A stretch of 64,000 nucleotides of DNA from positions 3,757 to 67,756 of the forward strand of contig CAVTEP010000003.1 of NCBI GenBank assembly GCA_963733915.1, written 5' to 3'. The notes beneath the pieces are model-generated. The model saw only the letters and a list, made by a program, of their open reading frames with translations. It made no database searches and was not told the DNA's origin. The position numbers were made by a program, and so were the translations under genes. This document shows, in pieces, positions 3,065 through 62,329 of the stretch (position 1 is the stretch's first letter; each line of letters opens with the position of its first letter). This stretch comes from Candidatus Sulfomarinibacteraceae bacterium. GTDB taxonomy: Bacteria; Acidobacteriota; Thermoanaerobaculia; Thermoanaerobaculales; Sulfomarinibacteraceae.

Positions 3065-4741
3065 TCATTCCTCCTCGCCGGACAGCACGACCCGATTTCG
3101 ACCTGCCCGCTTTGCGCGGTACAAAGCTTCGTCTGCGGCCGCAATCAGTTCGTGGCTCGTCAGAGCCGCCGGATGTTCGGCCACACCGCAGCTGAGGGTC
3201 ACCGCAAACGAGCCGTGACCGGTTTCGTGCTCGACGGCGGCAAAATTACGACGTATGTCATTCATCTTGGCGACCGCGGACTCACCGTCAGTGTCGGGCA
3301 GCAGGACGACATACTCGTCGCCACCAAAACGACCCAGCACGTCGCTCATCCGTAGCCGCTGCCGCAACAGATAGGACAGCGCCTTCAGTACCTGGTCGCC
3401 GGCCAGGTGTCCGTAGCTGTCGTTGATATCCTTGAAACCGTCGATGTCCAACATCGCCACCGCCAGCTTGCCGTCGTGGCGATCTGCCCTGCGCACCGCG
3501 ACCTCGAGCTGCTCGATGATGCGGCTGTGACGGAACAGCCCGGTCAACCCGTCGCGTTCCATGAACATCCGCAAGGTGCGACCACGCTGAGCGCGAGCCG
3601 CGACCGCCGGGACAAGCTGTTCGGGAGCCACGGGCTTGGTGAAGAAGTCATCGCCTCCTTCGCCGAGCGCGGCGATTTGTTTCATGCGGTCAGTCTCGCG
3701 TGACAGGAAGACGATCGGCACGCCGACAAAGGCCTCCTCCTGACGGATGACCGCTGCCAGCTCGATTCCGGAGCAAGCCGGCATGTACACGTCCATCAGG
3801 ATCACGTCGGGTTGAAACTCGACGAGCTGAGACATGACATCGAGTGGATCGACCACGGTAACGGTCTCGAGTCCTGCGGCCTCCAGACCGGCGGCGTGCC
3901 ACTCCGCAGTTTCGGTCTCGTCCTCGACGATCAATATTCGGTACGGCTCCGGTTCGCTCCGAGTGAGACGATCTAGGGTCTCGAGCACGTCCGAGTAGTT
4001 GACCGGTTTGACGAAATAACCGCTGCATCCCGCCCGCACCGCGTCCAACCGCGCCTCGATGTCCGAACGATTGGAAACGAAGACCATCGGCACGTCGCCA
4101 AACACGTCGCGCACGGTGTTCGCGGCCTCGACCGCCAACAGCTCCCCGGTCGGCGAGGACAGGTCCATGATCACTGCCGCCGGCTTGCGGTTGATGCCGC
4201 CCGACAAGACTTCATCCACCCGTTGAAACATCTGCAGCTCGAACCCGAAATGACCAAGCTGGAGGGCCAGCTCGCGCGCAAACGGACCCTCCTGCTCGAC
4301 CACCACGATGAGGTTCCTCGGTGCGAACAGGGGCTGGTTTTTGCCCGCCACCGAGTCGAGCGCCGCCGTGTCGAACGGTCGTTCCGGATCGTCGTTGACG
4401 GCGTTTCCGATTCTTTCAAACCACTCGATGACCTCTGCGCCCATTTCGGAACTCGGTGGCCGCGAACCTTCGAGGAGTGCTACCAGAAGGCGCTCGAGGC
4501 GGCGGGCGATTTTGGCCATTTTTGCAAACCCGAGGCTGCCCGCCGTTCCTATCAGACCGTGGACCGAACGGTGGAGCGCCCGCGCGCCGTCCTGGCTCCA
4601 GCCGTCCCCCTGGATGGCGTTCCACTCGTCGACCAGCGCCTGTTGCCGCGCCGGGAACTTCTCCTTGAAATTCGAGCGAAGCCGCTGGAGCTCCTTCTCG
4701 AGCTGATCTGACGGCGCACGCGTCGGACGCTCACTGTCCAT
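3065..4741 (-). CDS. Hpt - REC - REC - GGDEF diguanylate cyclase response regulator
   Basis: ORF 3065..4741; Hpt-like HGLIGTAGSLGF, two receiver domains (IMDLSSP, ILMDVYMPACSG), GGDEF motif RFGGDEYVVLL. Confidence 0.9.
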   Translation of the reverse strand: MDSERPTRAPSDQLEKELQRLRSNFKEKFPARQQALVDEWNAIQGDGWSQDGARALHRSVHGLIGTAGSLGFAKMAKIARRLERLLVALLEGSRPPSSEMGAEVIEWFERIGNAVNDDPERPFDTAALDSVAGKNQPLFAPRNLIVVVEQEGPFARELALQLGHFGFELQMFQRVDEVLSGGINRKPAAVIMDLSSPTGELLAVEAANTVRDVFGDVPMVFVSNRSDIEARLDAVRAGCSGYFVKPVNYSDVLETLDRLTRSEPEPYRILIVEDETETAEWHAAGLEAAGLETVTVVDPLDVMSQLVEFQPDVILMDVYMPACSGIELAAVIRQEEAFVGVPIVFLSRETDRMKQIAALGEGGDDFFTKPVAPEQLVPAVAARAQRGRTLRMFMERDGLTGLFRHSRIIEQLEVAVRRADRHDGKLAVAMLDIDGFKDINDSYGHLAGDQVLKALSYLLRQRLRMSDVLGRFGGDEYVVLLPDTDGESAVAKMNDIRRNFAAVEHETGHGSFAVTLSCGVAEHPAALTSHELIAAADEALYRAKRAGRNRVVLSGEEE

Positions 4742-5126
4742 CGACTGACCTCCAGATGCCGACCACGCGTTCGGCCAGGGTCATGGGGTCGAACGGCTTG
4801 AGAATCACGTCTGCGACGCCCGTCTCAAGCAGCGCCTTGATGTCGTGCTCCGAGATCACTCCGGTCAGGTAAATCACGGGAATCGAGTCAAAGCCCGGCT
4901 TTCGCTGCAATTCCTCAAACACCTCGGGCCCGCTCATGCCCGGCATCAAAACGTCGACGATGATCAGGTCCGGCTTGAACCCGGGGAGGAGATCGAGGAG
5001 CTCACGACCCGAGCCGCAGACCGCGACTTCATAACCGCCGACGGTCTCGAGCGCGATCCTCGAAATTTCGAGAATATCCGGCTCGTCGTCGGCGAGCAGG
5101 ATTCGCTGCAAGGAAATTATCCCCAT
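4731..5126 (-). CDS. single-domain CheY-like response regulator
   Basis: ORF 4731..5126; LLADDEPDIL, DLIIVDVLMPGMSG, ILKPFDP. Confidence 0.9.
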   Translation of the reverse strand: MGIISLQRILLADDEPDILEISRIALETVGGYEVAVCGSGRELLDLLPGFKPDLIIVDVLMPGMSGPEVFEELQRKPGFDSIPVIYLTGVISEHDIKALLETGVADVILKPFDPMTLAERVVGIWRSVDGQ

Positions 5127-5191
5127 GACAGGCCATCATACACGGGTCGAAAACAGCCGCCCGCCGCCGATCACTTCGCCACCTTCGGGGC

Positions 5192-5680
5192 TCAACCGCC
5201 AGACTCGACCCGGGTCCACTCCGAGGTCCGCCCGAGCATCGATATCCCGATGAAACCGCGCACCTTGAGAACCTTGTCGCCATCACCGAACCGGACCTTG
5301 CTCTTGTACGTCTTGCCGTTGTCCGGATCGTAAATCGTGCCCTTGATCCATGTGCCCTTGCCGTCGTACACGAAGCCCTGCATGATGACGAGCCCGATAA
5401 TCGGTCGCGAGCGCAGGGCCGGGTCGGGGTTGTTGTGGTCCTCCTTGGGTACCCCGGGCTCTTCGCCCTCGTCGTCCTCGGTGTAGAGAGGCTCTTCGAG
5501 CCACACGATCTTGCCGTCGTAACGATCGCCGTTGGCATAGACCTCGATATGGGCCTGGCCGCCCCCGCCCTCGGGATCGGTGGCCCACACGCCGACAATG
5601 GCATCCCCGTCGCCGGCCATCGCCGGCAGCACCCAGAAGATGACGGCCACGACGAACACAACAGGAAGATATCGCTTCAT
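5192..5680 (-). CDS. secreted DUF2147-family protein
   Basis: ORF 5192..5926 trimmed to MKRYLPVVFVVAVIFWVLPAMA signal peptide (ATG 5680); GVWATDP...GKTYKSKVRF...LKVRGFIGISMLGRTSEWTRV. Confidence 0.75.
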   Translation of the reverse strand: MKRYLPVVFVVAVIFWVLPAMAGDGDAIVGVWATDPEGGGGQAHIEVYANGDRYDGKIVWLEEPLYTEDDEGEEPGVPKEDHNNPDPALRSRPIIGLVIMQGFVYDGKGTWIKGTIYDPDNGKTYKSKVRFGDGDKVLKVRGFIGISMLGRTSEWTRVESGG

Positions 5681-5798
5681 GATCGGACGCCTCCCTCGCG
5701 GTTTCGTTGGCCGATCATACCTTTCGCCTGCAGCTTTCACCAGCTCGACGAGCGACCCGTAGTACATTTGAATCGTGGCGATACGGCGCTCGAAATCC

Positions 5799-6297
5799 AT
5801 GGTGTCCGCCGTCCCCCGGTTTCTGATCGTGGTTTTGACTGCGACGCTGGGATGCGACGGCGTTCCCCGGCCGCCCAATTGGCCGACCTTTGATCGGGTG
5901 GCCGTGAGCGAGCACAGCATCGGCATCCCCTACGGTTCGGTCGTGGTCTTCAGGACCGCCGGACAACTGGTGGCCCTGCGGGTCGTCGACGCCTCGCGGT
6001 GGGGTTACAAGATCGAGTACGAGTGGCAGGCCACGGCCCCCGGCACCGAGGTCTTTGACGGAACAAAGCGTGAATCCGCGACAACCGAAGAGAACCCAGA
6101 GAACAACAGGTGTCGGGTCGATTCGCGCCGGACCACTTTTCCTCCAATGGTCACGCGGTTCAGAGGAGATGGGCTGGTTGTACTGGCCGGACAAGGAGGG
6201 CGAGATCAGCGTCTGCGCTGTCACCTGGGGCAGTATCGACAGCATCGATCTCCAGAACCCCGAGGTCTTTTGGTACACACGCGATATGTTTGACTAG
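5799..6297 (+). pseudogene. hypothetical lipoprotein with apparent +1 frameshift near 6171-6173 (or assembly error)
   Basis: MVSAVPRFLIVVLTATLGC lipobox in frame of ORF 5775..6293; third-codon-position GC (GC3) and protein-like sequence switch to frame of ORF 6055..6297 (WLYWPDKEGEISVCAVTWGSIDSIDLQNPEVFWYTRDMFD); removing one G of GGG 6171-6173 joins ...RFRGDG to WLYWPD. Confidence 0.5.
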
Positions 6298-18892: not shown

Positions 18893-19023
18893 GAAACGTT
18901 AGAACGTTAAAACGTTCAACGTTCCCGCCCACCCCCGAGAGTTGGGTTGCTCATTCTTGTCTCGATATCACGGAACCTTCAAGAGTGGAACGTTCTGACC
19001 TTCAACGTTCTAAGGTTCTAACG
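18893..19023. repeat. tandem-unit element E4: (NAACGTTN) arms with CCCGCCCACCCCC core
   Basis: 18893-18923 gaaacgttagaacgttaaaacgttcaacgtt; C-box 18924-18936; right arm 18972-19023 ggaaccttcaagagtggaacgttctgaccttcaacgttctaaggttctaacg. Confidence 0.8.
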
Positions 19024-22740: not shown

Positions 22741-23885
22741 AGATCGCCACCTCCTGCGTTCATGCCGGCCATGGCGCCGACGAACTCACTGGAGCCGTCA
22801 ACGTTCCGATCTATGCCTCCTCTACGTATGCGTATCGCCGTTTCGGAGAGCATCGCGGCTGGGAGTATTCGCGTACCGGGAACCCGACGCGATCCGCCCT
22901 CGAGCGCGCGATGGCTGAGATCGAGGGCGGAGCCGACGGGATCGCCTTTGCCTCCGGTCTGGCCGCGATAGATGCCCTCACCGATCTTTTCGAGGCCGGG
23001 GACAATGTAGTCGCCGCCGACACTCTCTATGGCGGCACCTGGCGCCTGTTTTCGACCATCACCAAACGCCACGGACTCGAGCTGCGCTTTGCCGCCGCCA
23101 CCGATCCGGAGTCCTTTGCCGCAGCAGCCGACGAACGCACGCGGATGATCTTTGTCGAGTCCCCGACCAATCCGCTCATGCAGCTGGTCGACCTGTCCGC
23201 GGTCACTTCCGTCGCCGGAGCGCACGGTGCCCTGCTGGTGGTCGACAACACTTTTCTGACGCCGGTCCTGCAGCGCCCCCTCGAGCTCGGCGCTGACGTC
23301 GTCGTGCACTCCACGACCAAGTACCTCAACGGCCACTCGGACGGCGTCGGCGGCGTGATCGTCACCCGCGACGCCGCGCTCGGCCAACAACTGCACACCA
23401 TTCAGAACAACGTCGGCGCCATTCTCGGGCCCTTCGACGCCTACCTGGTCATCAGGGGCTTGAAAACCCTGGCCGTCCGCATGGCGGTGCACGAAGCCAA
23501 CGGCCGGAGTCTCGCCGGCTTTCTGGCGGCCCACAAGGATGTTGCCGCCGTGTATTACCCCGGGCTTGCCAGCCACCCGCAACACCGGCTGGCGCGGAGC
23601 CAACAATCCGGTTTCGGGGGCATGATCTCGTTTGATCTCGGATCGGTTGAGAAGGCGCGTGCCTTCTGCGACGGAGTCGAGATCTTCACCCTCGCCGAGT
23701 CGCTCGGCGGAGTTGAATCGCTGGTCTGCCACCCGGCCACCATGACCCACGCAGCGATACCCGCCGATGTGCGGGAGCGCCTCGGCATCGGCCAGGGATT
23801 GATCCGGCTCTCGGTCGGCATCGAGGACGCGTCCGACCTCGAGGCCGACATCACCAAGGGCCTCGACGCCGCATCAGACGTTTGA
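22737..23885 (+). CDS. cystathionine gamma-lyase/gamma-synthase family PLP enzyme
   Basis: frame of ORF 22578..23885 trimmed to MKIATSCVHAG (ATGA overlap with upstream stop); HSTTKYLNGHSD PLP-lysine motif. Confidence 0.85.
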   Translation: MKIATSCVHAGHGADELTGAVNVPIYASSTYAYRRFGEHRGWEYSRTGNPTRSALERAMAEIEGGADGIAFASGLAAIDALTDLFEAGDNVVAADTLYGGTWRLFSTITKRHGLELRFAAATDPESFAAAADERTRMIFVESPTNPLMQLVDLSAVTSVAGAHGALLVVDNTFLTPVLQRPLELGADVVVHSTTKYLNGHSDGVGGVIVTRDAALGQQLHTIQNNVGAILGPFDAYLVIRGLKTLAVRMAVHEANGRSLAGFLAAHKDVAAVYYPGLASHPQHRLARSQQSGFGGMISFDLGSVEKARAFCDGVEIFTLAESLGGVESLVCHPATMTHAAIPADVRERLGIGQGLIRLSVGIEDASDLEADITKGLDAASDV

Positions 23886-24008
23886 ACGATTCAACGTTAA
23901 TACGTTAAAACGTTCCCACCCCTCCTCCCCCGAGATCCTCGGCCATCGACAGGGTTGGGCGGGCGAAACGTTCTAACGTTAAACGTTCCAACATTCTAAC
24001 GATTCAAA
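23884..24008. repeat. tandem-unit hairpin element E7: AACGTT-type arms, C-box, G-box; bounded by 10-nt direct repeat
   Basis: 23884-23914 gaacgattcaacgttaatacgttaaaacgtt; C-box 23915-23931 cccacccctcctccccc; G-box 23952-23965 gggttgggcgggcg; right arm 23966-24008; aacgattcaa at 23885-23894 and 23998-24007; left end overlaps TGA 23883-23885. Confidence 0.85.
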
Positions 24009-26533: not shown

Positions 26534-26669
26534 CAACCGTTTGAACGTTGCAACATTAGAACGTTAGAACGTTAGAACGTTCCTAATCTCCCCCAGGGTG
26601 TACATCGAGAATTGACTGGGGTGGATGGACGAAACGTTTTAACGTTGAACGTTCCAACGTGTAACGTCG
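26534..26669. repeat. tandem-unit hairpin element E8: AACGTT-type arms around ctcccccag...ctggggtgg core
   Basis: 26534-26583 caaccgtttgaacgttgcaacattagaacgttagaacgttagaacgttcc; right arm 26631-26669 gaaacgttttaacgttgaacgttccaacgtgtaacgtcg; ends 5 nt before the stop of the convergent gene. Confidence 0.85.
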
Positions 26670-48039: not shown

Positions 48040-48071
48040 CGTTAAACGTTTGAACGTTAAAACCTTAGAAC
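48040..48071. repeat. single AACGTT-type tandem-unit arm E12
   Basis: cgttaaacgtttgaacgttaaaaccttagaac, 4 nt after the thiolase stop; no core or partner arm. Confidence 0.65.
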
Positions 48072-48123
48072 TTTTCGGTGCTATCATCTTCCGACCGGCC
48101 ACAGATTCGGGAGGTGAGTGATC

Positions 48124-57970: not shown

Positions 57971-58264
57971 AGTCTATCGCGGAAAACGCCTTCCCGTCAT
58001 GATCGTAAGAAACGTTTTGTCTGCCTGAATATTGTGGCGAAGTTTCATCGCGACGCTGGAATTCACGTTTGTTCATCGCAGCACTGCAGCCATGGTTCAC
58101 ACGCTCGCCTCTTATGGTTGCGCATTGCATCATGAATATTGTGGTCAGATTTCGCGCTATTTGCTGACTGTAAATGTTCTTTCCAGTCGCGGCGGCGGAC
58201 CAGACTGCTGCACTTTTTGATAAAATGACATTTGATTTATTTCGAGATTTTGCAGAAATTTCCC

Positions 58265-58293
58265 TTGACTCTCGATATTCTAAATCGTATTCT
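58265..58293 (+). promoter_or_regulatory. sigma70-like promoter candidate TTGACT - 17 nt - TATTCT
   Basis: 58265-58270 ttgact, 58288-58293 tattct, followed by GGAGGTG (58309-58315) and ATG 58320. Confidence 0.45.
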
Positions 58294-58319
58294 GACCTTA
58301 GACTCTTTGGAGGTGACCT

Positions 58320-58706
58320 ATGGCGTTCGAGAAGTTCATTCCGCCGCAAACCTCCGGTGTGCGGCCACGGGCCACCATCCGGCCGAGCGGTTTGATCTCA
58401 TTCGATTCGGCTACGGTAGAGGCGTTTGGTCTGAAATCTGCGTCGTACGCGGTGTTGTATTTCGACAAAACGCGAAAAATCGTTGGCGTGCAGATTTCGA
58501 AGAATGCCAACGAAGATGGTTCGTTGAAGCTGTCGCGTAGACGGCGGTCCGTGAGTCTTAAAGCGCCGCAGTTTTTCGACCTCTACGGGCTCTCATTTGA
58601 TGAAGCACAGCGATTCGACGTCGGGCTGGATCCCGATTCCAAAATGCTGACAATCAGCCTGAAATCGGTCCAGCGCCGCCGCGGGCGGCGTCCCAAGACG
58701 ACCTGA
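58320..58706 (+). CDS. orphan hypothetical protein with basic C-terminal tail (QRRRGRRPKTT)
   Basis: ORF 58320..58706; own promoter and strong RBS; sits in an AT-richer islet; no family recognised. Confidence 0.55.
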   Translation: MAFEKFIPPQTSGVRPRATIRPSGLISFDSATVEAFGLKSASYAVLYFDKTRKIVGVQISKNANEDGSLKLSRRRRSVSLKAPQFFDLYGLSFDEAQRFDVGLDPDSKMLTISLKSVQRRRGRRPKTT

Positions 58707-58734: not shown

Positions 58735-59532
58735 TCACGGTTTCGGCCAACCGTCACCGACACCGAAAAGAACCCGAAAGCCGGCCGTGGAGCTCAGAGC
58801 GACCTCCTCGACCGGCTTTTTCCATTCCTCTGCCAGGCGGCGACCGATGAGGGGTACGTACGCCGGTTCGTTCTCTCTGCCCCGATGGGGAACCGGAGCA
58901 AGGTACGGGCTATCCGTTTCCACCAGGACGCTTTCGGGTTCGAGCACCGCCACGATCGCGCGGATATTTTCAGAATTCTTGAATGTCACCATTCCTGAAA
59001 TACCGACCCAAAGGCCCATCTCCACCACCTGTCGGGCTGCCTCCACGCCCTCTGTGAAGGAGTGACAAACTCCTCGCAGGCGGCCCTTGCGTTCTTCCAA
59101 CATCGAAATGAGGTCAGGCCACGATTCCCGATTGTGCAGCACGACCGGCAAGTCCATCGCGATCGCGAGATCGAGCTGCCAGGCAAGCGCGGCCAACTGG
59201 TCCTCACGCGGCGAGTTCAGGTAGTGGTAGTCGAGTCCGATCTCGCCCACTGCAACCACGGTCGCCCGCTCGCACGCCTTTTCGATGAGGCGTTTCATCG
59301 ACGCATCGAGCGAGTCGGCCTCGTGGGGATGAACGCCCGCCGCCGCCACGACCCGATTCGGATGATCTTCCGCAAGGCCGAGGGTGAGGTCGATATCGTC
59401 AGGGCCGGTGGCTGGCGTAAGGATTCCGGCGACTCCGGCACCCGCAGCGCGATCCAGGACGCCGGCAACCTCGTGCTCATCGAACATGCTGAGATGGGCG
59501 TGCGAGTCGATCCAGATCATTGTCTCGGTCAT
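58735..59532 (-). CDS. tatD: TatD-family metal-dependent hydrolase (DNase)
   Basis: ORF 58735..59532; WIDSHAHL, GEIGLDYHY, VLHNRE, HSFTEG, ETDSPYL. Confidence 0.9.
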   Translation of the reverse strand: MTETMIWIDSHAHLSMFDEHEVAGVLDRAAGAGVAGILTPATGPDDIDLTLGLAEDHPNRVVAAAGVHPHEADSLDASMKRLIEKACERATVVAVGEIGLDYHYLNSPREDQLAALAWQLDLAIAMDLPVVLHNRESWPDLISMLEERKGRLRGVCHSFTEGVEAARQVVEMGLWVGISGMVTFKNSENIRAIVAVLEPESVLVETDSPYLAPVPHRGRENEPAYVPLIGRRLAEEWKKPVEEVALSSTAGFRVLFGVGDGWPKP

Positions 59533-59598
59533 GACGGGAGTCTACAGCATCGTTAGAACGTTAAAACGTTGAACGTTAGAACGTTTGGCTTATCCGGG

Positions 59599-59695
59599 AT
59601 GGCGAGAAATCGAGGTTCGGAAGGCCCGGTTGGCCCGCATTATTCATGAGGTCTCGTCGCCCTCGCGACGAAACCCGGTGAGATATGCGGTTTAG
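59599..59695 (+). pseudogene. N-terminal stub of a four-helix-bundle (PF05635-like) gene
   Basis: ATG 59599 followed by one extra G, then frame 59600-59695 reads WREIEVRKARLARIIHEVSSPSRRNPVRYAV stop; resembles family N-terminus (x-D/E-L/I-E-V-W-x-K-A-x-x-L-A-x-x-I-Y); stops where the next repeat block begins. Confidence 0.45.
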
Positions 59696-60037
59696 CCGCT
59701 GCCGCTGTCCCTGCCCGGTCCCTACCCGCCGTTGCAACGGATCGGACCACCGGTATCGGAGACGGGTGGTCCCCTTTTCCCCTTTTCTCCTTTTCTCCTT
59801 TCCCCCCCTTCCTCATCAGGGAGGGCGGGTGAAACGTTCGGTTCATCCGGAATTTGATGGGATCGAGTTTTGGAAGTTCCGATCAGCTAACCCAGCGACA
59901 GGAACAGCGACACACCGCAGGGGCAGTGAACAGCGGCCGAGGCAGCGACCGCGGCAGCGACCGGGGCAGTGAGCAGGGGTCGTGACGACGGCATGTTCAA
60001 GCCGGGTCGTTCAGTGCGAGAGGTAGCCGGTGGGCAC

Positions 60038-60093
60038 CCGATGTCAAGGGCAAGCCGGGCCGAGGGCCCGGTGCGATGCACCCTTGACATCGG
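60038..60093. repeat. 13-nt perfect inverted repeat with inner hairpin, upstream of the intact four-helix-bundle gene
   Basis: ccgatgtcaaggg (60038-60050) ... ccgggcc gag ggcccgg (60055-60071) ... cccttgacatcgg (60081-60093); right half contains TTGACA. Confidence 0.75.
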
Positions 60094-60118
60094 CCGCCTC
60101 ACCGGCTCGAGGAAGGGC

Positions 60119-60493
60119 ATGAACGACCCGGCGTTGAACATGTCCGACGCGCGTACGAACCCCAACCTCGTTGCCCACTCGAAGGCCCTTGACGCGGCTG
60201 GCATTGCGATCAAGCTCGTGATGAGGGTTCCAGCCCCATTGAAATCGATCGCCGATCAGGTGATCCGGTCGGCAAGCTCGGTCCCGGCCAACCTGGCGGA
60301 GGGGCACGGCCGGGCCGGAAGAGACCGGCAACACTTCTGGAGGATCGCCTACGGCTCAGCCAAGGAGGTCGACAGCCACCTTCGCCTCCTGGTTCAGGCT
60401 GGTGCCGTTGATGGACGAAGCGCCACGACCGCACTCGATACCTTCGATCAAGTCCGCGCCATGACCTGGCGCTTGCTCAACCCAAACACCTGA
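60119..60493 (+). CDS. intact four-helix-bundle protein (23S rRNA intervening-sequence protein / Avd family, PF05635/TIGR02436-like)
   Basis: frame of ORF 59969..60493, ATG 60119 (or 60140); ...SIADQVIRSASSVPANLAEGHGRAGRDRQHFWRIAYGSAKEVDSHLRLL... matches the family core Q-x-x-R-A/S-x-x-S-x-x-x-N-x-A-E-G ... A-x-G-S-x-x-E. Confidence 0.8.
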   Translation: MNDPALNMSDARTNPNLVAHSKALDAAGIAIKLVMRVPAPLKSIADQVIRSASSVPANLAEGHGRAGRDRQHFWRIAYGSAKEVDSHLRLLVQAGAVDGRSATTALDTFDQVRAMTWRLLNPNT

Positions 60494-60716
60494 TCGGCGT
60501 TCTCCGCGCCGGTCCGGCCGGGAGTTGTCGCGGTCAACTGTCCCTGACGCGGTCCACGGCCGCTGCCGCCGTCCCTGACCGCCGCCCCTGACCGCCCGTC
60601 CAACGGATGCGACCAACTCCGTCGGGGACGGGTGGGTGGAAAATCCGAATTCCGAAATTGAAGAGTTGACACCCCACGCAATTCCGGAAGACCCAAACGT
60701 TCCAACGTACAAACGT

Positions 60717-61442
60717 TTAACGACTCTCTTGCCGGGCGACCAACATTGCGCCGCCGACCACGGCGGCAGTCTCGGATCGGAGTACGTGATCGCCGAGCCG
60801 AAGCCGCGGCCAACCGTAACGGACGAAGAGCTGTTGCTCCACTGCGGTGAACCCGCCTTCAGGACCAACCGCCAACAGTCGGCCGGCGTCCGCGGGAATG
60901 TCTGCAACTGCTCCACCGTCGTGATCGGCGACAACCCCGCCTCCTAGCGGCGACTCCCGTTCGATCAGCTCCTCCAGAGACGCGATGTCCGCGACCTCCA
61001 TTGCCCATGCACGGTGGCACTGCTTGAGCGCCTGCATCGCGATGCGGCGCCAGTGGTCGACTCGAGTCTCGCGCCCGCGGCGAAGGGCCTGGGCGAGCTC
61101 GGCATCGATCGGCAGCAGGCGCCGCACCCCGATCTCGACCAGTTTTTGAACGGCCCAGTCCATCGGCTGGTTGCCGACCATGGCGAGAGCGACCGCTACG
61201 CCGTCGGCGAGCGGCTTTGGCTCCCGCCGCACCGATAAGATCTCGACCTCGACCTTGCCCCCGCCAACGGCGACCAGCTTTGAATCGGCGACCGCGCCGA
61301 GACCATCAATGAGAACAACCTCGTCACCTCGGCGACGCCGCAGTGGACCTGTGAGATGGTGGGCTTCAGCGGGATCGAGCGTCAAAGTGCGTCCGACTTC
61401 GAGGCTCTGAGCCGGTGCAAGTAGCCACGGTGGAGACTTCAT
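60717..61442 (-). CDS. rsmE: 16S rRNA (uracil1498-N3)-methyltransferase
   Basis: ORF 60717..61478 trimmed to MKSPPWLL; PUA-like N domain, GPEGGFT, LRLGDHVLRSETA; its last codons and stop lie inside the AACGTT arm. Confidence 0.8.
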   Translation of the reverse strand: MKSPPWLLAPAQSLEVGRTLTLDPAEAHHLTGPLRRRRGDEVVLIDGLGAVADSKLVAVGGGKVEVEILSVRREPKPLADGVAVALAMVGNQPMDWAVQKLVEIGVRRLLPIDAELAQALRRGRETRVDHWRRIAMQALKQCHRAWAMEVADIASLEELIERESPLGGGVVADHDGGAVADIPADAGRLLAVGPEGGFTAVEQQLFVRYGWPRLRLGDHVLRSETAAVVGGAMLVARQESR

Positions 61443-62329
61443 GGCGCCCGCTCCCTCATCACTGTCAGGCTCAGCCACTCACCGAGCTGCCGTGTCGAGC
61501 ACACCACCAGACCGGCCGGAGCGAGCTCTCTGGACACGGCTTCGAGTTCGGAGCCGAGGAGCCCAGAAAACACCGCGGTCCCCCCCGGCACCAACAACCG
61601 CCGGATATCACCGACCAGGGGCAGGCTCTTGGCGGCGATCATGTTGCAGAGCACGACGTCGAAGGCGGCGTTTCCGACACAGCCCACTGTCCCCAGCAGA
61701 AATCGCACACGGGGATCCCAATCCTGTTGGCGGGCGCTCTGGCGCGCGACCCAGATCGCTGCCGGGTCGAAATCGAAGGCGACCACCCACCCCGCACCGA
61801 GAATGTCCGCCGCCAGGGCCAGGATTCCGGAGCCGGTACCAACATCGAGGACGCTGCCCCCATTGATTTCGAGCTCTTCGAGGGCCAGAAGAACGCCTTG
61901 TGTGGACTCGTGGCTACCGCTGCCAAATGCCGTCCTGGGTTCCACCGCGAGCCGGCGCCGGTTTTCGGGCGCGGGGGTCGGTCGATCGGGATGGGGATCG
62001 ATCCACCACCGTTTTCCGACTGCAAAGGGCCGTGCGCTTGCCCGGTAGCCCTCAAGCCAGTCCTCGGTCTCCTGCCGTACGACGGTGAGGTCGACTGCGC
62101 CGCTGCCGGCCAGGGCCAGAAGCAGCGAATCCGCAGATTCCGTTTCGTGCCCCTGCAGGTAGATCGAAGCCCACACCGTGTCTCTCGACTGTTCGCAGAT
62201 TTCGACTCCCAGCACCGGCCAGGGCGCAATCAGACCGGGGAGCTCCTCCTCGAGTTCTGTCGGGATTCGGCAGCGGAGATTCAGGTAGGCATCCTTTGGA
62301 GTCGAGCCCGCCATATTTCTTGGTTTCAC
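61439..62329 (-). CDS. prmA: ribosomal protein L11 methyltransferase
   Basis: ORF 61439..62329; AFGSGSHESTQ, VLDVGTGSGILA, NMIA. Confidence 0.9.
   Translation of the reverse strand: MKPRNMAGSTPKDAYLNLRCRIPTELEEELPGLIAPWPVLGVEICEQSRDTVWASIYLQGHETESADSLLLALAGSGAVDLTVVRQETEDWLEGYRASARPFAVGKRWWIDPHPDRPTPAPENRRRLAVEPRTAFGSGSHESTQGVLLALEELEINGGSVLDVGTGSGILALAADILGAGWVVAFDFDPAAIWVARQSARQQDWDPRVRFLLGTVGCVGNAAFDVVLCNMIAAKSLPLVGDIRRLLVPGGTAVFSGLLGSELEAVSRELAPAGLVVCSTRQLGEWLSLTVMRERAP

Follow-up and report, generated by a model that had tools for sequence, protein, structure and literature searches.

The origin and spread of rRNA intervening sequences (IVSs) have been debated since the 1990s, and many bacterial genomes encode PF05635 "IVS proteins", of which structures have been solved. 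To our knowledge, PF05635 proteins outside the Avd branch, which belongs to diversity-generating retroelements (DGRs), have no known function. The IVS of Coxiella possesses an inverted-repeat stem in which RNase III cuts, an S23p open reading frame (ORF) and, upstream of it, variable heptameric repeats, and it loses its Shine-Dalgarno region on cleavage; old, untested proposals hold that IVSs are remnants of transposition or mobile elements whose ORFs aid mobility (PMC4990558). Insertion sequences (ISs) of the ISL3 family create 8-bp direct repeats and favor AT-rich targets (PMC3469429). Here we describe a stretch of 64,000 nt from contig CAVTEP010000003.1 (GCA_963733915.1) of a Candidatus Sulfomarinibacteraceae bacterium, hereafter called the window, in which the 1.18-kb spacer between tatD and rsmE contains a cassette with a PF05635 gene. 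The best explanation overall, and one that we consider likely, is that this spacer holds nested mobile repeats, among them a cassette with ISL3-type ends that is moved in trans and carries an IVS-like PF05635 core.

[quoted passage not shown] Unlike that of MICs, its passenger is not an adaptive "payload": the PF05635 gene sits in a structured core and is constrained over dozens of paralogues, and the same core is also found in a second, unrelated shell. Like the 23S IVSs with an S23p/PF05635 ORF in Coxiella, Leptospira, Xanthomonas and Brucella, the cassette encodes a protein of this family, encloses the ORF by complementary termini that are predicted to form a long stem, has short tandem repeats 5' of the ORF (heptameric in Coxiella) and has its translation signals entangled in a stem, which is processed in the IVS (PMC4990558) and may be processed in the cassette as well. 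It differs from the 23S IVSs in lying in an intergenic spacer and not in an rRNA helix, with no rRNA match in the region, in being bounded by transposon ends and target duplications, and in being high-copy, with an ORF that is intact and constrained instead of decaying. The cassette is best filed as an ISL3-type MIC with an IVS-like PF05635 passenger, and as neither a DGR nor a strict rRNA IVS. In our literature searches, PF05635 genes were nowhere described as passengers of transposons or as forming a high-copy family in Acidobacteriota. That a PF05635 gene in an IVS-like stem-loop, with short tandem repeats 5' of it, lies between transposon ends and target duplications and stays under purifying selection while copies number dozens per genome provides concrete evidence for a route of spread by DNA transposons, and this cassette family hints at how intervening sequences spread.

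The cassette, its ends and its relatives

The cassette and the target-site duplication that flanks it comprise the following features.

59832-59839, no strand: target-site duplication AAACGTTC, left copy, identical to 60695-60702
59840-60694, plus strand: complete gene-carrying non-autonomous cassette with a type-A shell, 855 bp
59840-59864, plus strand: left terminal inverted repeat IR-L2, GGTTCATCCGGAATTTGATGGGATC
59893-59978, plus strand: 5' CAGnnn tandem array (GGCAGCGACCG-type), period 6-7 nt, upstream of the leader in relatives too
59991-60143, plus strand: leader hairpin, with a basal stem (59991-60015/60119-60143) and an inner stem (60025-60050/60081-60107)
60119-60493, plus strand: PF05635/TIGR02436 four-helix-bundle gene, 124 aa, by profile match
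60538-60592, plus strand: 3' nnnCTG tandem array, which includes the start of direct repeat B
60592-60639, plus strand: C-box/G-box hairpin (CCGCCCGTCC...GGACGGGTGG), the end of direct repeat B
60670-60694, plus strand: right terminal inverted repeat IR-R, reverse complement GGGTCTTCCGGAATTGCGTGGGGTG
60695-60702, no strand: target-site duplication AAACGTTC, right copy

In the window, as at the Holophagae and DATIVB loci, the type-A inverted repeats read GGYTCATCCGGRA..CGTGAGGT. At the related locus L023, they bound a 1.3-kb IS in which a 403-aa ORF encodes an ISL3 transposase (PF01610, E 6.7e-69) with an ISL3 helix-turn-helix domain; the ends of the window cassette align with those of the L023 IS, and GGYTCATCCGGRA..GTGAGGT is common to all. 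The unit in the window is flanked by a perfect 8-bp duplication, AAACGTTC, and other type-A copies by locus-specific 8-mers in direct orientation, such as AAAAGTCA, CAACTTTC, TAAAGTTA and ACACGTTA. Holophagae copies of the cassette are 835-860 bp long, and the flanking 8-mers of 14 such copies match at 6-8 of 8 positions, compared with a mean of 2.98 in the cross-locus control. In ISfinder terms, the cassette is a mobile insertion cassette, i.e., a cargo-bearing MITE (PMC3129680), and judging from its ends it is most likely mobilized in trans by an ISL3-family transposase that recognizes them. The initial annotation had rightly noted that no enzyme is encoded at the locus and that mobility would need factors in trans; its term "host factors" is too broad, given that an IS with an ISL3-family DDE transposase has matching ends.

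L023 (3693-5939) also contains a PF05635 core that has a left end; next come G-rich boxes (GGGTGGGTGGGTGG) that alternate with AT-rich arrays and may form quadruplexes, and then the complete ISL3 IS with its transposase at 4632-5843 on the minus strand. The outermost ends of L023 could carry the core and the transposase jointly as an autonomous unit.

A protein search returned 4111 homologues, the best of which are 92% identical and several of which come from one contig, the homologues in MAGs of the nearest relatives being 89-93% identical, and a scan of genome contigs with one genome per species returned at least 483 relatives. Among the best 80 of these, which were aligned, 34 loci come from one metagenome-assembled genome (MAG) and 17 from another, at different positions. 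All but eight of the best 80 loci are from Acidobacteriota-type MAGs labeled Sulfomarinibacteraceae, Holophagae or Thermoanaerobaculia, and the eight are from one bin labeled Chondromyces. The copies examined, at 25 loci with defined ends, are intergenic, with long ORFs within 0-300 nt on both sides. No relatives were found in viral contigs.

The same core is also found in a second shell, type B, in Sulfomarinibacteraceae MAGs. Its terminal repeats (TCACTGCTGTCCAAAACAG...CTGTCTTGGACAAGAGTG) are unrelated to those of type A, the elements measure 790-940 bp, the target resembles ATSCWGSA, and perfect 8-bp duplications are present at 11 of 21 loci compared with 6 of 420 controls. A 461-bp gene-less type-B derivative (L053, 4858-5318) has kept the CAG and CTG arrays, while a different hairpin replaces the gene and most of the leader. 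On a metagenome contig from JGI (L081, 2640-3600), the core lies between purL and a peptidase M1 gene with an AACGTT array on its left and with neither type-A nor type-B terminal repeats, which suggests that there are more shell types or shell-less copies.

The occurrence of the core in two unrelated shells and in at least one context without either raises the question of whether the core itself is the primary mobile or selected unit, an IVS-like entity that gets into hairpin loops or palindromic repeats through RNA or through recombination and has repeatedly colonized the shells as secondary vehicles. Its architecture parallels that of rRNA IVSs, which take the place of apical loops in rRNA helices (PMC4990558), and its protein has the fold of Avd, the cofactor of a reverse transcriptase. 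However, no core was seen with an insertion signature of its own, no convincing empty type-A shell without the core was found in the related loci examined, there is no reverse transcriptase beside the window copy, and capture of a passenger gene by different ISs suffices to explain the two shells. We regard this possibility as unlikely and favor trans-mobilization of the cassette by its ISL3-type ends.

Around the ends of the elements, locus-specific tandem arrays of 7-8 nt are found with the same unit on both sides (such as GGATGCA, GCATCCA, GCATCTA or GTCCAAA). They occupy about 30 nt on each side of the type-B ends at L027, L035, L041, L069, L075 and others, and in the flanks of L007 and L011. 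They are not simply stacked target duplications, as the duplication is 8 bp long and many of the arrays have a period of 7 nt.

Nested repeats between tatD and rsmE

The tatD–rsmE spacer is a nest of small mobile repeats, of which those outside the cassette and its duplication are listed below.

59549-59586, no strand: left arm of an older small hairpin element, tandem nAACGTTn units with a period of 7-8 nt
59587-59628, plus strand: IR-L1 (GGCTTATCCGGGATGGCGAGAAATCGAGGTTC...), a solo left terminal inverted repeat from a type-A copy that has decayed and has no gene
59654-59695, plus strand: right-end fragment of an unrelated inverted-repeat element of about 185 bp (terminal repeat CCCGCWTATCTCACC)
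59695-59775, plus strand: direct repeat A (nnnCTG array and C/G hairpin), the 3' module that the decayed copy has retained
59776-59831, no strand: C/T-rich box, short loop and G-box (GGGAGGGCGGGTG), the center of the older hairpin element
60703-60722, no strand: older element, rest of its right AACGTT arm, overlapping the rsmE stop (60717-60719)

The AACGTT arms described in the initial annotation are real (59549-59586 and, as a whole, 60695-60722 on the right): the window contains 22 matches to the pattern AACGTTNNAACGTT, where 0.02 are expected, and arms like the left one are also found at 18895-18923, 23885-23914 and 26536-26581. The C-box/G-box hairpin that it had reported was likewise recovered, at 59799-59834, with a z score of -2.85 against shuffled sequences. 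A family of small hairpins in the window, all intergenic, consists of an nAACGTTn array (7-8 nt), a C-box, a loop, a G-box and a second array (18895-19017, 23885-24000 and 26536-26661, with a lone array at 48045-48075), and the element at 23885-24000 folds with a z score of -3.0. These small elements are without ISL3-type ends and are a family distinct from the cassette. They resemble mosaics of repetitive extragenic palindromic sequences (REPs) and bacterial interspersed mosaic elements (BIMEs) in forming mosaics and in appearing to be preferred landing sites of IS-type elements; they differ in that their arms are tandem arrays of 7-8 nt and not single palindromic units, and no REP-associated tyrosine transposase (RAYT) was seen, without a search aimed at RAYT.

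Removal of the 855-bp unit together with one copy of AAACGTTC leaves the G-box followed by AAACGTTC CAACGTAC AAACGTTT. The layout so restored is that of the right half of the three small AACGTT-armed hairpins, and a comparable junction between G-box and 8-mer, GGGCGGGCG followed by AAACGTTC, is found at 23957-23973. The match in layout indicates that the cassette was inserted into the right arm of an older AACGTT-armed element, and small AACGTT hairpins seem to act as landing sites for ISL3-type ends. Between the left arm and the C-box, which starts at 59776, lie 189 bp (59587-59775) that are made up of the solo type-A left end, a foreign fragment and direct repeat A, and these are what is left of an earlier type-A insertion. 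The solo left end is identical to the left end of L007 at 30 of 42 positions and aligns with the ends of the L023 ISL3 IS. The foreign fragment is identical to L057 at 35 of 41 positions; full copies of this element of about 185 bp are found at L026 (4513-4695) and L057 (4523-4702), and the family adjoins the right ends of PF05635 cassettes, with only the right-end fragment present in the window. Modules of the direct repeat A type sit 3' of the gene in related loci, and repeats A and B of the window, already recognized in the initial annotation, are 91% identical between 59695-59717 and 60559-60581 and 74% identical between 59720-59769 and 60586-60635. The terminal hairpins that had been assigned to the two repeats are present; their predicted stability is no better than that of shuffled sequences (z +0.39 for A and -0.44 for B), which rules them out as significant structures.

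We propose that the ancestral spacer contained a small hairpin, its C-box/G-box center set between arms of AACGTT arrays, and that this element was struck twice by cassettes of a non-autonomous family whose terminal inverted repeats are of ISL3 type. Of the earlier insertion, a solo left end and a 3' module (direct repeat A) are left after decay, and the younger one (59840-60694, 855 bp) is the complete cassette that lies between the two 8-bp copies of AAACGTTC.

In the initial annotation, the locus was instead read as a composite of two four-helix-bundle genes, one intact and one truncated, and as the best candidate for an active master of its AACGTT-armed family. This reading drew on direct repeats and arms that are real, and the locus does have two left ends and one right end, as does L023. 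However, the putative truncated gene, a 36-aa ORF at 59585-59695, has no Pfam or NCBIfam match even at E ≤ 1, and it is not a gene fragment, as its DNA consists of two non-coding repeat modules (59587-59628 and 59654-59695). There is also no transposase or other enzyme at the locus and no ISL3 transposase in the window, the ends in the window are diverged from those of the intact IS and more diverged than those of copies elsewhere, and the small AACGTT elements, which have no ISL3-type ends, are a different family. A composite master copy is thus very unlikely. The proposal that a gene-carrying element had entered an older AACGTT-armed element is borne out by the excision described above, with the correction that it did not enter a gene and that there is no second gene. 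The nested repeats, together with AT-rich arrays of 7-8 nt, C/G-box hairpins and several MITE families, belong to a repeat landscape of Acidobacteriota that is missed by standard annotation.

The PF05635 gene and its structured core

The intact 124-aa ORF at 60119-60493 had been assigned to PF05635 before any profile search was run, and the assignment holds: the protein matches PF05635 with 58.7 bits (cut-off 33.8, E 7.8e-16) and TIGR02436 with 60 bits (cut-off 24, E 2.2e-16). An AlphaFold2 (AF2) monomer model consists of four helices with a pLDDT of 89.7, and only residues 1-13 are of low confidence. By Foldseek, the nearest structure is 2GSC (Xcc0516), with a TM score of 0.77-0.84 and an rmsd of 1.7, and 2RLD (BT_0352) is also matched; phmmer finds 2GSC as well (E 1.7e-4). 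The model superposes on the DGR protein Avd of the Bordetella phage (bAvd; 4DWL, 8UB7) with TM scores of about 0.7-0.8 and 8% sequence identity. The family link to rRNA intervening sequences and Avd that was drawn in the initial annotation is supported by the profile match and the Avd fold, and the protein, predicted to be a four-helix bundle of the Avd fold, probably binds nucleic acids.

The shared four-helix-bundle fold is also what could be said for a DGR remnant or satellite in which the PF05635 protein acts as Avd. Against it stand the sequence identity of 8% to bAvd and the nearest structures, 2GSC and 2RLD, which are non-DGR proteins. DGR components, for which the initial annotation had suggested a search of the genome, were not seen near the cassette, with no reverse transcriptase, no template/variable repeat pair and no PADLOC match; the neighbors of the cassette are alr, tatD, rsmE, prmA and dnaJ, and the phage context of bAvd is missing. 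We consider a DGR origin extremely improbable. Neither PADLOC nor PHROG has a match for the protein, and as it also has no relative in viral contigs, a defense-system or phage protein was rejected.

Among 79 copies of the gene, 78 are intact ORFs of 123-125 codons. The dN/dS ratio (Nei-Gojobori) is 0.145 over the 79 copies and 0.12-0.17 among paralogues within single MAGs, and the protein is, by this sequence comparison, kept under purifying selection. The median dS is about 0.3 within genomes and 0.95 between genomes; together with the low dN/dS, this pattern indicates that the copies multiplied within lineages under protein constraint. Purifying selection would also be expected of an ordinary small chromosomal gene that lies amid REP/BIME-like repeats and terminator hairpins with nothing mobile about it, and the GC content close to that of the host and the repeat-rich flanks of the window copy agree with such a gene. 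Nevertheless, the IS-matching terminal inverted repeats, the 8-bp duplications and the copies, dozens in a genome, at unrelated sites between genes argue against it, and no terminator-like sites were found, so that we hold an immobile gene to be highly improbable and return to the mobile cassette.

In all 80 loci, the core follows the same plan, with a CAGnnn array, a leader (about 150 nt), then the gene and last an nnnCTG array, and nucleotide conservation reaches far upstream of the ORF and only briefly downstream. The GGCAGCGACCG-type array noted initially corresponds to the CAG array at 59893-59978. The leader and the first eight codons of the gene are predicted to form a near-perfect hairpin of -106.6 kcal/mol (shuffle mean -64.3, z -10.3), in which the first 23-25 nt of the gene pair with an upstream copy of their own reverse complement as the basal stem. 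Both in-frame ATGs (60119 and 60140) are base-paired in this prediction, and an internal loop contains a purine-rich, Shine-Dalgarno-like stretch. The leader inverted repeat that was first reported is real and is merely the inner part of this larger hairpin (59991-60143).

The leader hairpin is also supported by covariation. With a structure taken from one member of the alignment itself, 84.6% of the cells in the 80-sequence alignment form standard pairs, compared with 30-45% in controls with the partners shifted by 1-3 columns; changes on both sides are seen in 30 of 60 pairs, and none of 500 shuffles attains any of the five observed measures. In the window, the basal stem has compensatory changes (GTTCAAGCC/GGCGTTGAAC, compared with the consensus GGCCACCTCC/GGAGGTGACC) that turn the N-terminal peptide MNDPEVTM into MNDPALNM, which is consistent with residues 1-13 being the only low-confidence part of the AF2 model. 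Rfam covariance models matched the leader and repeats only at chance level (E 0.14 and 0.32), far below gathering scores. Whole-element minimum-free-energy folds (z -9.8 for the window and -11.8 for L007) pair the terminal repeats, and the CAG array with the CTG array, around the leader and gene, and the duplex of the 5' and 3' arrays in the window is -96.7 kcal/mol.

At the RNA level, the gene could be enclosed by one giant stem that is formed by both arrays and the terminal repeats. By analogy with IVSs, the long duplexes of the leader stem, the CAG/CTG stem and the terminal repeats may be substrates of RNase III, whose cuts would excise the cassette from host or read-through transcripts or insulate it from them. 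The leader hairpin, by pairing with both start codons, would gate translation. A more far-reaching and tentative idea, which we consider rather doubtful, is that the PF05635 core is the free-living form of rRNA IVSs: a selfish cassette that hitch-hikes on DNA-transposon shells, is excised by RNase III through the stem of the CAG/CTG arrays and terminal repeats, and couples this processing, through its leader, to the production of an Avd-like nucleic-acid-binding protein that it needs. If this were true, removal by RNase III from any transcript would render insertions harmless, even in operons or rRNA, the need of the cassette for its protein would account for purifying selection acting on all copies, the scattered occurrence of IVSs would have an explanation, and the function of PF05635 proteins would become experimentally approachable. 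The ISL3 transposase with its ends, the 150-nt hairpin that is predicted to sequester the start codons and RNase III together offer a defined test system.

Counter-indications and genomic setting

Several observations weigh against the reading of the locus as a cassette of ISL3 type with an IVS-like core that moves in trans. The cassette itself contains no transposase, and tblastn with the ISL3 transposase of L023 found none in the 64-kb window. The terminal repeats of the window copy are diverged (e.g., GGGTCTTCC for GGCTCATCC), and judging by this divergence the window copy may no longer be mobilizable. The AACGTT-rich context makes the match of the duplication at 8 of 8 positions less improbable than it would be at a random site, and a metagenome scan with RsmE found no relative, so that an empty tatD–rsmE junction was not retrieved. 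For the RNA part of the reading, the covariation is compatible equally with a hairpin in RNA or in single-stranded DNA. Cognate and non-cognate array duplexes from the same genome have equal energies (-105.2 kcal/mol, compared with -72 when shuffled); the complementarity of the outer stem is therefore generic, with no copy-specific CAG/CTG complementarity or covariation. No consensus sigma-70 promoter or intrinsic terminator was found within the element, and both the RNase III processing and the gating of translation by the leader are only inferred.

The repeat nest touches both host genes, which are as follows.

58735-59532, minus strand: tatD (PF01026, E 6e-70)
60717-61478, minus strand: rsmE (PF04452 and TIGR00046)

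The start codon of tatD is 16 nt (59533-59548) from the left AACGTT array, and expression of tatD must therefore cross the element or start within it. As had been stated initially, the right arm overlaps the end of rsmE (60717-60722): the stop codon (60717-60719) of this minus-strand ORF lies inside the right AACGTT array. The genes prmA, dnaJ and then rsmE lie on one strand, and the PF05635 gene, the sole profile-supported gene of the spacer, lies on the strand opposite to tatD and rsmE. With respect to the PF05635 gene, any read-through from rsmE to tatD would be antisense, and it would form the same long hairpins.

Between alr and tatD, a 128-aa ORF without a Pfam match (58320-58706, plus strand) is located in an AT-rich patch (58000-58706), in which the GC content is 0.42-0.49, compared with 0.64 for the window (63.7%).

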